From: Curvularia clavata
Lineage: Eukaryota
Direction: 5' to 3'
DNA length: 64,000 nucleotides
Assembly: GCA_023920165.1 (NCBI GenBank)
Contig: CP089278.1
Span: forward strand, 1,674,001 to 1,738,000
The translations under genes and the position numbers were made by a program. The notes beneath the pieces are model-generated. The model worked only from the letters and a program-made list of their open reading frames with translations, was not told where the DNA came from and did not search any database. Positions 55,660 to 55,812 of this stretch are shown piece by piece; the stretch's first letter is position 1, and every line of letters begins with the position of its first letter.

Positions 55660-55812
55660 ATGAGACTAGCCATGACATGTCTTACTCTCTCCTACGGCGA
55701 CCCGCAGCCCCGTGACGGAGGAGCGCCGCATCCAGGTGCTCGACTGAGACAATCTTCCACCATGATGCTCTCCATGGCCGGCGATGGACCTCAGCCTCGC
55801 GATGGAGGCTAA
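55660..55812 (+). CDS. Putative 50-aa micropeptide with two GD(G)PQPRDGG repeats
   Basis: accaccATG start after a CA-rich leader. The two PQPRDGG copies differ at 5 third-codon positions, all synonymous. Confidence 0.6.
   Translation: MRLAMTCLTLSYGDPQPRDGGAPHPGARLRQSSTMMLSMAGDGPQPRDGG

Follow-up and report, generated by a model that had tools for sequence, protein, structure and literature searches.

Organization of the locus

A short gene with an internal repeat lies in a 64,000-nucleotide (nt) stretch of DNA from Curvularia clavata (assembly GCA_023920165.1, contig CP089278.1, positions 1,674,001 to 1,738,000 of the forward strand), which was analysed as a whole and is referred to here as the window, all positions being counted from its first letter. 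The gene, called small ORF 1, is an open reading frame (ORF) whose product carries two copies of the heptapeptide PQPRDGG, the second of them forming the extreme C-terminus. The comparative data presented below show that small ORF 1 is a conserved coding gene under purifying selection on its peptide. About 1.2 kb on its 5′ side, and on the same strand, lies a second short coding sequence, small ORF 2, which is likely to be its paralogue, and small ORF 1 is flanked by an RCY1-type ORF and a DUF3602 gene, as had been reported in an initial annotation of the window. The coordinates of these features are collected in Table 1.

Table 1. Position of small ORF 1, its parts and the neighbouring features in the window.
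Feature	Position	Strand	Description
Small ORF 1	55660-55812	+	ATG, 50 codons, TAA; translation of the window
Motif 1 and conserved tail	55699-55734	+	Residues 14-25, DPQPRDGGAPHP; APNP in most relatives
Motif 2	55789-55812	+	Residues 44-50, PQPRDGG, with TAA immediately after
Conserved block, putative promoter	55430-55521	+	About 145 nt 5′ of the ATG; alignment A5, window and 10 loci
Minimal 5′ leader	55584-55659	+	From the start of the X17 RNA-library contig; A/C-rich
Probable 3′ untranslated part of the same RNA	55813-56303	+	Unconserved; X15, X16 and X18 contigs
Small ORF 2	54455-54617	+	Exon 1 54455-54521, intron 54522-54588, exon 2 54589-54617
RCY1-type gene (F-box and Sec10-like)	49863-52253	-	Domain scan
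DUF3602 gene	57228-57732	+	Exon 1 57228-57285, intron 57286-57394, exon 2 57395-57732; PF12223, E = 2e-17

Translation of small ORF 1 reproduces exactly the 50 residues, followed by a stop, given in the initial annotation, which had also called attention to the two copies of PQPRDGG. As described there, the copies (CCG CAG CCC CGT GAC GGA GGA at 55702-55722 and CCT CAG CCT CGC GAT GGA GGC at 55789-55809) differ in five of seven codons, and every difference falls on a synonymous third position. When five substitutions were put at random into the first copy, the peptide was left unaltered at a frequency of just 0.000315 (200,000 trials). In addition, small ORF 1 is the only one of the 409 ATG-to-stop ORFs of 30-100 amino acids (aa) in the six frames of the window to contain an exact, non-overlapping repeat of seven residues, and 40 first-order Markov simulations of the window produced no ORF with such a repeat. 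The repeat pattern of small ORF 1 is beyond chance.

The duplication also extends beyond the motif noticed at first. Specifically, CCACCATGA..CCATG is present twice, at 55655 and at 55757 (family D2 of the repeat search), and therefore the two halves of the ORF align as Met..(S)(Y/M)..GD..PQPRDGG units, that is, as a longer and diverged tandem duplication. Motif 1 is kept by conservation in an extended form, DPQPRDGGAPNP. In-frame ATGs are found at 55660, 55672, 55762, 55765 and 55774.

Selection on the encoded peptide

A scan of metagenome contigs provided 16 loci with DNA (L001 to L016), which together with the window give 17 versions of small ORF 1, 14 of them distinct. The frame from ATG to TAA, with a length of 48-51 codons, is kept in all 17 versions; the first ATG is invariant, an A occupies position -3 in 17 of 17, and the TAA stands directly after the two glycines, again in 17 of 17, the final glycine being encoded by GGC in 13 of the 14 distinct versions. 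In the codon alignment of the distinct versions, 16 motif columns (D14-P23, P25 and P46-G50, in the numbering of the window) are residue-invariant. These columns hold from one to four codons each and have accumulated at least 29 synonymous changes, including exchanges of AGA or AGG with CGN for Arg, and no residue change at all. In the protein alignment, likewise, all 16 sequences agree at P17-P23, at P25 and over the PRDGG of motif 2.

This pattern can be expressed as proportions of synonymous (pS) and non-synonymous (pN) differences, computed on 28 pairs from eight lineages (the window, L001, L005, L006, L009, L010, L011 and L012), once the near-duplicates L002-L004, L007, L008 and L013-L016 had been set aside. 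In the motifs pS is 0.657 and pN 0.011, compared with 0.694 and 0.383 in the rest of the ORF, so that invariant motifs stand against a fast-evolving linker and N-terminus. Identity by codon position in small ORF 1 is 0.69, 0.79 and 0.50. Mean identity is 0.66 over the ORF, 0.54 over the 150 nt on the 5′ side and 0.47-0.51 over the 450 nt on the 3′ side, the last being the level of unrelated alignments. Moreover, a comparison of the 163 stop-to-stop frames with 15 residues or more on both strands of 52700-57230 found just one, the frame of small ORF 1, to be matched in all eight lineage groups, and its matches were free of stops; the antisense frame shows residue changes where the sense frame has none. 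Selection on the peptide, which the initial annotation had deduced from the two copies in the window, is thus borne out across species. The same annotation had suggested that the internal ATGs could give separate peptides of 12-16 aa, and this proposal found no support: the Met before motif 2 is absent in L010, L011 and L014, and in the database proteins P0005, P0006, P0011 and P0012, whereas the first ATG is invariant.

The stop codon of small ORF 1 overlaps a further ATG (TAATG, 55810-55814) in the window and in L001-L004, and not in the other lineages. The 36-codon ORF that opens there showed no conservation in a translated comparison of frames.

Members and distribution of the family

Relatives of small ORF 1 were collected by several searches at the protein level. 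A word-indexed search returned two relatives among four candidates, and a HMMER scan of 1.84 billion representatives gave 14 matches at E ≤ 0.001, 12 of which cover the whole ORF and reach their own C-terminal end. The other two of the 14, P0008 (1137 aa) and P0014 (254 aa), were removed from the family as repeat-driven chance matches confined to the variable linker. Profile searches added 16 of 1,097 candidates of similar length and nine of 8,000 longer ones; the latter owe their additional length to N-terminal extensions across the stop-poor leader, and in every case it is the C-terminal end that is homologous. Altogether, about 25 database proteins carry the family sequence, and the family amounts to 53 sequences, 37 of which are distinct from the first motif onward.

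Among these 37 sequences, 31 end in PRDGG and three in PRCGG, while the remaining three, all gene models, have another end. The PRCGG enders are P0016, P0017 and P0036, one of which comes from Delitschia, and the exchange of Asp for Cys requires two base changes; this end could be the sign of a subclade or of an exchange that matters chemically.

The named sources comprise Pyrenophora seminiperda, P. tritici-repentis and P. teres, Alternaria arborescens, A. tenuissima and A. burnsii, and, in addition, Clathrospora elynae, Coniothyrium glycines, Plenodomus lindquistii, Amniculicola lignicola, Delitschia confertaspora and Zopfia rhizophila. All of them belong to the Pleosporales, save Zopfia, which is placed in the Dothideomycetes incertae sedis. 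Genome projects in Alternaria, Zopfia and Pyrenophora have annotated the gene as a stand-alone unit of 47-61 aa, and every named member bears the database label "hypothetical protein".

No known family or fold was recovered. Pfam, searched up to an E value of 10 with small ORF 1, three relatives and exon 1 of small ORF 2, gave no family; a PDB sequence search with the family profile, again up to an E value of 10, matched no chain, and the ESM Atlas returned no usable match. The AlphaFold2 model, built on a 16-sequence alignment, has a predicted local distance difference test (pLDDT) of 61.8, a predicted template modelling score (pTM) of 0.13 and no secondary structure, and the peptide is accordingly predicted to be intrinsically disordered. 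The full text of the literature, supplementary tables being outside the search, contained nothing for "QPRDGG", DUF3602 or six locus tags of homologues. The family, the architecture of its motifs and the paralogue are not described in the literature or libraries searched. The proposal that this is an undescribed family therefore stands as far as these libraries and papers are concerned, and has to be qualified in that sequences of 47-61 aa are already deposited as unnamed hypothetical proteins.

Upstream region and RNA evidence

On the 5′ side of small ORF 1, conservation is concentrated in the block listed in Table 1: pairwise identity averages 0.625 between -300 and -151, compared with values of 0.47-0.54 for the remaining flanks. 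The block contains, in this order, TGCGTCA (55432-55438), GCCTGAAAGAAGGCAGTCAT.., GACAGGCCTCAGGA (55490-55503) and the TATA-like element TTATATA (TTATAT at 55513-55518), together with an inverted repeat formed by 13-nt arms (55439-55451 and 55467-55479) separated by a 15-nt spacer. In alignment A5 the columns over TGCGTCA, the inverted repeat, GACAGGCCTCAGGA and the TATA-like element are invariant or nearly so. TGCGTCA, which we take to be a half-site resembling those of basic leucine zipper (bZIP) proteins or the cyclic AMP response element (CRE), is not enriched in the window, where eight matches were found against 10.3 expected, and counts only through its conservation at 55432. Judging from these sequence features, the block may be regarded as a putative promoter.

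The leader is poor in G, which amounts to 5% of the last 150 nt in the window and to 5-13% across lineages. No upstream ATG is present within 125 nt of small ORF 1 in any of 10 lineages, and therefore the ATG of small ORF 1 would be the first AUG. Furthermore, in-frame stops occur within 150 nt upstream in six of the 10 lineages, which excludes a conserved N-terminal extension.

Contigs from four RNA-library runs (X15-X18) were placed on the window at an identity of at least 99%. Small ORF 1 is present in RNA libraries, being covered by a contig of X17 (55584-55822) and by contigs of X15 (55642-55791 and 55778-55928). Other contigs of X15 (55964-56113 and 56153-56303), as well as those of X16 (55980-56258) and X18 (56118-56253), fall in the probable 3′ part of the same RNA; the contigs of these three studies end at 56253-56303, a weak hint of where the RNA has its 3′ end. 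Since spliced contigs of the adjacent DUF3602 gene (57284 to 57394) occur in X16 and X18, and a loose end in X15 fits the same splice, three of the four runs demonstrably carry RNA of the organism. No contig of any of the four runs was found over 54748-55583 or 56360-56731, a distribution that fits separate transcription units and is not evidence for them, as contigs record presence only.

The segment 55840-55889, just 3′ of the stop codon, carries textbook fungal intron signals (GTCCGT..CTAAC..CAG). As a candidate intron of 50 nt it was rejected, being retained in the single spanning contig (X15, 55778-55928) and located in an unconserved region.

A probable upstream paralogue

Small ORF 2 is a spliced coding sequence with a product of about 30 aa. 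Its first exon ends with ..PPGDGG and one additional nucleotide, so that a phase-1 intron of 67 nt follows right after ..DGG; the corresponding GT..AG splice (54521 to 54589) was seen in an RNA contig of X18. The tail encoded by exon 2 begins with RKP and terminates at a TGA (54615-54617). The same exon structure is found in L001/L002, L011 and L016, where exon 1 ends with ..QPGDGG, ..QPGDGG and ..DPRDGG, respectively, and L012/L013 have a variant form with ..QQPRDGG and a different tail. The coordinates in these loci are 1808-1950 in L001, 1798-1945 in L011, 1756-1940 in L016 and about 1757-1900 in L012. Among the 11 loci with at least 2,194 nt of upstream flank, small ORF 2 was found in six, and not in L006, L007, L010, L014 and L015.

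The P-[RG]-D-G-G codons of small ORF 2 differ synonymously between lineages. Moreover, a six-frame search of the 64-kb window for [PG][RG]DGG gave three occurrences, all of them inside small ORF 1 and small ORF 2. Small ORF 2 is likely to be a paralogue of small ORF 1.

A non-coding block of about 550 nt on the 5′ side of small ORF 2 (53903-54450; GC content 0.57-0.66) is 68-71% identical with L001, L011 and L016. Its translated matches are spread over several frames, and in every one the subject is interrupted by stops; it is therefore probably a promoter or a leader.

Neighbouring genes

The DUF3602 gene has an exon 1 of 58 nt and a phase-1 intron of 109 nt that interrupts its first GRGGAGN motif. 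Its RNA contigs begin at 56799, and consequently its leader measures at least 430 nt. The gene lies downstream of small ORF 1 on the same strand, at about 1.4-1.7 kb, in eight of the 10 loci with 2,997 nt of downstream flank, and is absent within this distance in L012 and L013. DUF3602 (PF12223) resembles the small ORF 1 product in being a small Gly-rich fungal protein with R-x-G-G-A-x-N-like repeats (GRGGAGN compared with RDGGAPN), encoded next to it on the same strand. A paralogy between the two was nevertheless rejected, as the profile-profile comparison was null (hhalign probability 0.26%, six aligned columns) and Pfam gave no family.

Two conserved islands, 56501-56551 and 56792-56829, with 76-87% identity in four to five loci, are located between the small ORF 1 RNA and the DUF3602 gene, and the second coincides with the first DUF3602 RNA contig. 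About 3.5 kb downstream of small ORF 1, a 2-oxoglutarate-Fe(II) (2OG-Fe(II)) oxygenase gene (DIOX_N and 2OG-FeII_Oxy) is found in two ORF pieces at 59339-60632 on the + strand.

A proposed function for the peptide

On these grounds, small ORF 1 is very probably a real protein-coding small gene. It would represent an independent micro-gene, provided with its own promoter, a short leader, the 50-codon ORF and an unconserved 3′ part, and the function of its presumably disordered peptide would reside in a short linear motif, (Q)PRDGG, which is present twice. The internal copy is continued by APNP, while the second, as the extreme C-terminus, would expose a free diglycine carboxylate. Once made, the peptide would act in trans by presenting its motifs to a partner protein as a bivalent ligand, and small ORF 2 would encode a one-motif version of the same ligand. 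In a variant of this mechanism, the peptide would be cut after the internal GG, thereby yielding two peptides with the same PRDGG end. Translation, action in trans, binding of the motif to a partner and any cleavage are all steps that we infer, and a trans-acting mechanism, with the peptide as motif ligand or as precursor, is offered tentatively, as a reading somewhat short of an even chance. A function centred on the motif is consistent with small ORF 2, which has one motif and in which P[RG]DGG is not adjacent to the stop codon.

Several observations weigh against such a trans-acting peptide. First, the invariant TAA and the nearly invariant GGC before it point to some constraint at the nucleotide level at the termination site, and both are also predicted by a mechanism acting in cis on termination. 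Second, no signal peptide is apparent by reading of the sequence (no signal-peptide predictor was run), and therefore processing by proteases of the secretory pathway has no obvious route. Third, the gene model P0032 of Pyrenophora tritici-repentis (61 aa) fuses exon 1 of small ORF 2 to the body of small ORF 1, giving three PRDGG motifs, and accordingly small ORF 1 may not always start translation at its own ATG. Fourth, the gene models P0021, P0034 and P0037 are devoid of the second motif. Finally, the RNA contigs have low depths (2-5) and cannot show strand, ends or level of the RNA, and X17, in which no splice was seen, is for this reason not proven to be RNA.

Alternative explanations

A first alternative, serious though unlikely, is that small ORF 1 acts in cis as a regulatory ORF, a ribosome-acting peptide having been one of the suggestions of the initial annotation. 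In this case the nascent PRDGG would slow or arrest the ribosome, both on the internal copy and on reaching the stop codon, and would thus determine how stable its own short RNA is or how strongly DUF3602, 1.4 kb downstream, is expressed; the released peptide would have no role. Precedents for conserved-peptide upstream ORFs (uORFs) and arrest peptides are the fungal arginine attenuator peptide and the peptide MAGDIS of the mammalian AdoMetDC uORF, and runs of Pro, Asp and Gly are the kind of sequence that is slow to translate. Small ORF 1 shares with these systems that it is short and comes first on its RNA, and that the conservation of its peptide is strongest where it abuts the stop codon; in addition to the constancy of TAA and GGC, it is followed on a short RNA by a long unconserved 3′ part, and it lies upstream of DUF3602, on the same strand, in eight of the 10 loci with enough flank. 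The sequence MAGD, which precedes motif 2 in small ORF 1, recalls MAGDIS over four residues, is not invariant and is treated as chance. In contrast with the arrest peptides, the motif also occurs away from the stop codon: of the three copies at the locus, motif 1 and the one in small ORF 2 (in four lineages) do not adjoin a stop, and therefore a pure termination stall fails to explain all copies. Moreover, no conserved main ORF is seen within the RNA contigs, the downstream 450 nt being unconserved, and DUF3602 has RNA contigs of its own, which start at 56799 or later. No RNA contig bridges small ORF 1 to DUF3602, although contigs cannot prove absence, and L012 and L013 carry small ORF 1 with no DUF3602 within 2,997 nt downstream.

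A second explanation, which appears quite unlikely, is that small ORF 1 encodes a precursor of exported or matured small peptides, either pheromone-like or similar to ribosomally synthesized and post-translationally modified peptides (RiPPs). The precursor would be cut at or after GG, giving products that end in PRDGG, with APNP (two X-Pro pairs) or RK as trimming signals. Known fungal precursors of ribosomal peptides include dikaritin and other Kex2-processed repeat proteins, MSDIN-type precursors of cyclic peptides and a-factor-like pheromones. Small ORF 1 is precursor-like in having a repeated core-like motif, variable spacers and a distribution restricted to one fungal order. All three units at the locus read Met..P[RG]DGG, and what comes next is APNP, RK.. 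or a stop codon; the 2OG-Fe(II) oxygenase gene mentioned above could be counted in favour of this model. Nonetheless, the initial annotation had considered the fit to pheromone and dikaritin precursors to be poor, and the present data agree: by reading of the 50 residues, with no signal-peptide predictor run, there is no signal peptide, no KR pair and no RR pair, around the cores or elsewhere, and no CAAX box, and the N-terminus is hydrophilic in many relatives (for example, MRLLEQNN and MQFNNQD). Dikaritin and Kex2 precursors differ in their signal peptide and KR sites, MSDIN-type precursors in their conserved leader, and a-factor-like pheromones in their CAAX terminus, the place of which is taken here by DGG. 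Furthermore, none of nine large neighbouring ORFs scanned in 44-64 kb, in a scan that was not exhaustive, matches a known RiPP tailoring family, UstYa/DUF3328-type genes included, and the tail after GG is different in L012/L013.

A third possibility concerns the exon structure. Exon 1 of small ORF 2, through its phase-1 donor after ..DGG, might be spliced to an acceptor at the start of small ORF 1, so as to encode a product of about 60 aa that carries the PRDGG motif three times. Gene model P0032 has exactly such a structure, and an in-phase AG is available both in the window, at +10, and in three Pyrenophora-like loci (L005, L008 and L016), at +19. On the other hand, the position of in-phase acceptors is not conserved in 11 sequences, L010 having none and L011 having both candidates followed by a stop; neither the ATG of small ORF 1 nor its context varies, and the two ORFs are separated by the conserved block with its TATA-like element. 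In addition, the only joint seen from 54521 leads to 54589, and other genome projects annotate small ORF 1 alone. Small ORF 1 was not found to be an exon of a known longer gene, P0032 being the single model that joins it to exon 1 of small ORF 2, and the exon model is improbable. It is possible that the joint in P0032 reflects a minor or lineage-specific isoform, or an artefact of annotation.

A more far-reaching proposal is a fungal system of diglycine-ended peptides, with units (two in small ORF 1 and one in small ORF 2) cut after GG, in a manner resembling release from a polyubiquitin-type precursor. The disordered PRDGG-COOH peptides would then be attached to targets by way of the terminal Gly, as a tag resembling Pup and lacking a ubiquitin fold, or their free end would be read by a dedicated receptor as a signal or degron. 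Diglycine-ended tags and their precursors are represented by ubiquitin, SUMO-type modifiers and polyubiquitin, and bacterial Pup, which ends in GGQ or GGE rather than GG, is a related case. The similarities are that small ORF 1 ends with ..GG, that the sequence continues beyond its internal copy, as it does in precursors cut after GG, and that its peptide, like Pup, is small and predicted to be disordered. The peptide differs from ubiquitin-like tags in having no predicted beta-grasp fold and no similarity to any solved chain, and to our knowledge no activating enzyme or conjugate has been reported for it. With respect to recognition of a free end, ubiquitin ligases of the KLHDC2 type are reported to read C-terminal diglycine degrons in animals (PMC11470957, PMC11568203). 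Small ORF 1 would offer such an end, given the stop after GG in every DNA version, whereas that system is known from animals and the internal copy of the motif would be no C-degron unless the peptide were cleaved. On balance, a diglycine system of this kind must be considered highly improbable.

Lastly, the view that the region is non-coding, being conserved as DNA or RNA or containing an ORF by chance, might appeal to a translated peptide with no match to a family or structure, and is refuted for practical purposes by the codon alignment and the pS and pN values, given that synonymous sites in the motifs are saturated with no residue change, that all 17 versions preserve the start, the stop and the frame, and that residue changes appear in the antisense frame at places where the sense frame has none; its probability is close to nil.

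Significance

Micropeptides encoded by small ORFs have been reviewed as a general class (for example, PMC10341979 and PMC9622821). Small ORF 1 conforms to micropeptides on short mRNAs in that it has fewer than 100 codons, a short RNA of its own, a peptide under purifying selection and no domain. It departs from them in that no fungal family with its sequence is described among the libraries and literature searched, and in the seven-residue internal duplication, the invariant stop after GG and the adjacent spliced paralogue. In other words, a lineage-restricted micropeptide gene is a known kind of element, and it is the design based on a duplicated, GG-ended motif that is unusual.

Small ORFs that are conserved and under selection, and to which no function has been assigned, are rare entry points into new biology, and small ORF 1 combines unusually clean comparative evidence with an odd architecture. 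The family occurs only in Pleosporales-type fungi, and many species of that order are associated with plants. With its 150 nt, small ORF 1 is also a compact and easily mutated case for separating the function of a peptide from translational control in cis. If the free GG end proves to be the functional group, this would suggest a system of diglycine recognition or conjugation not described in fungi.

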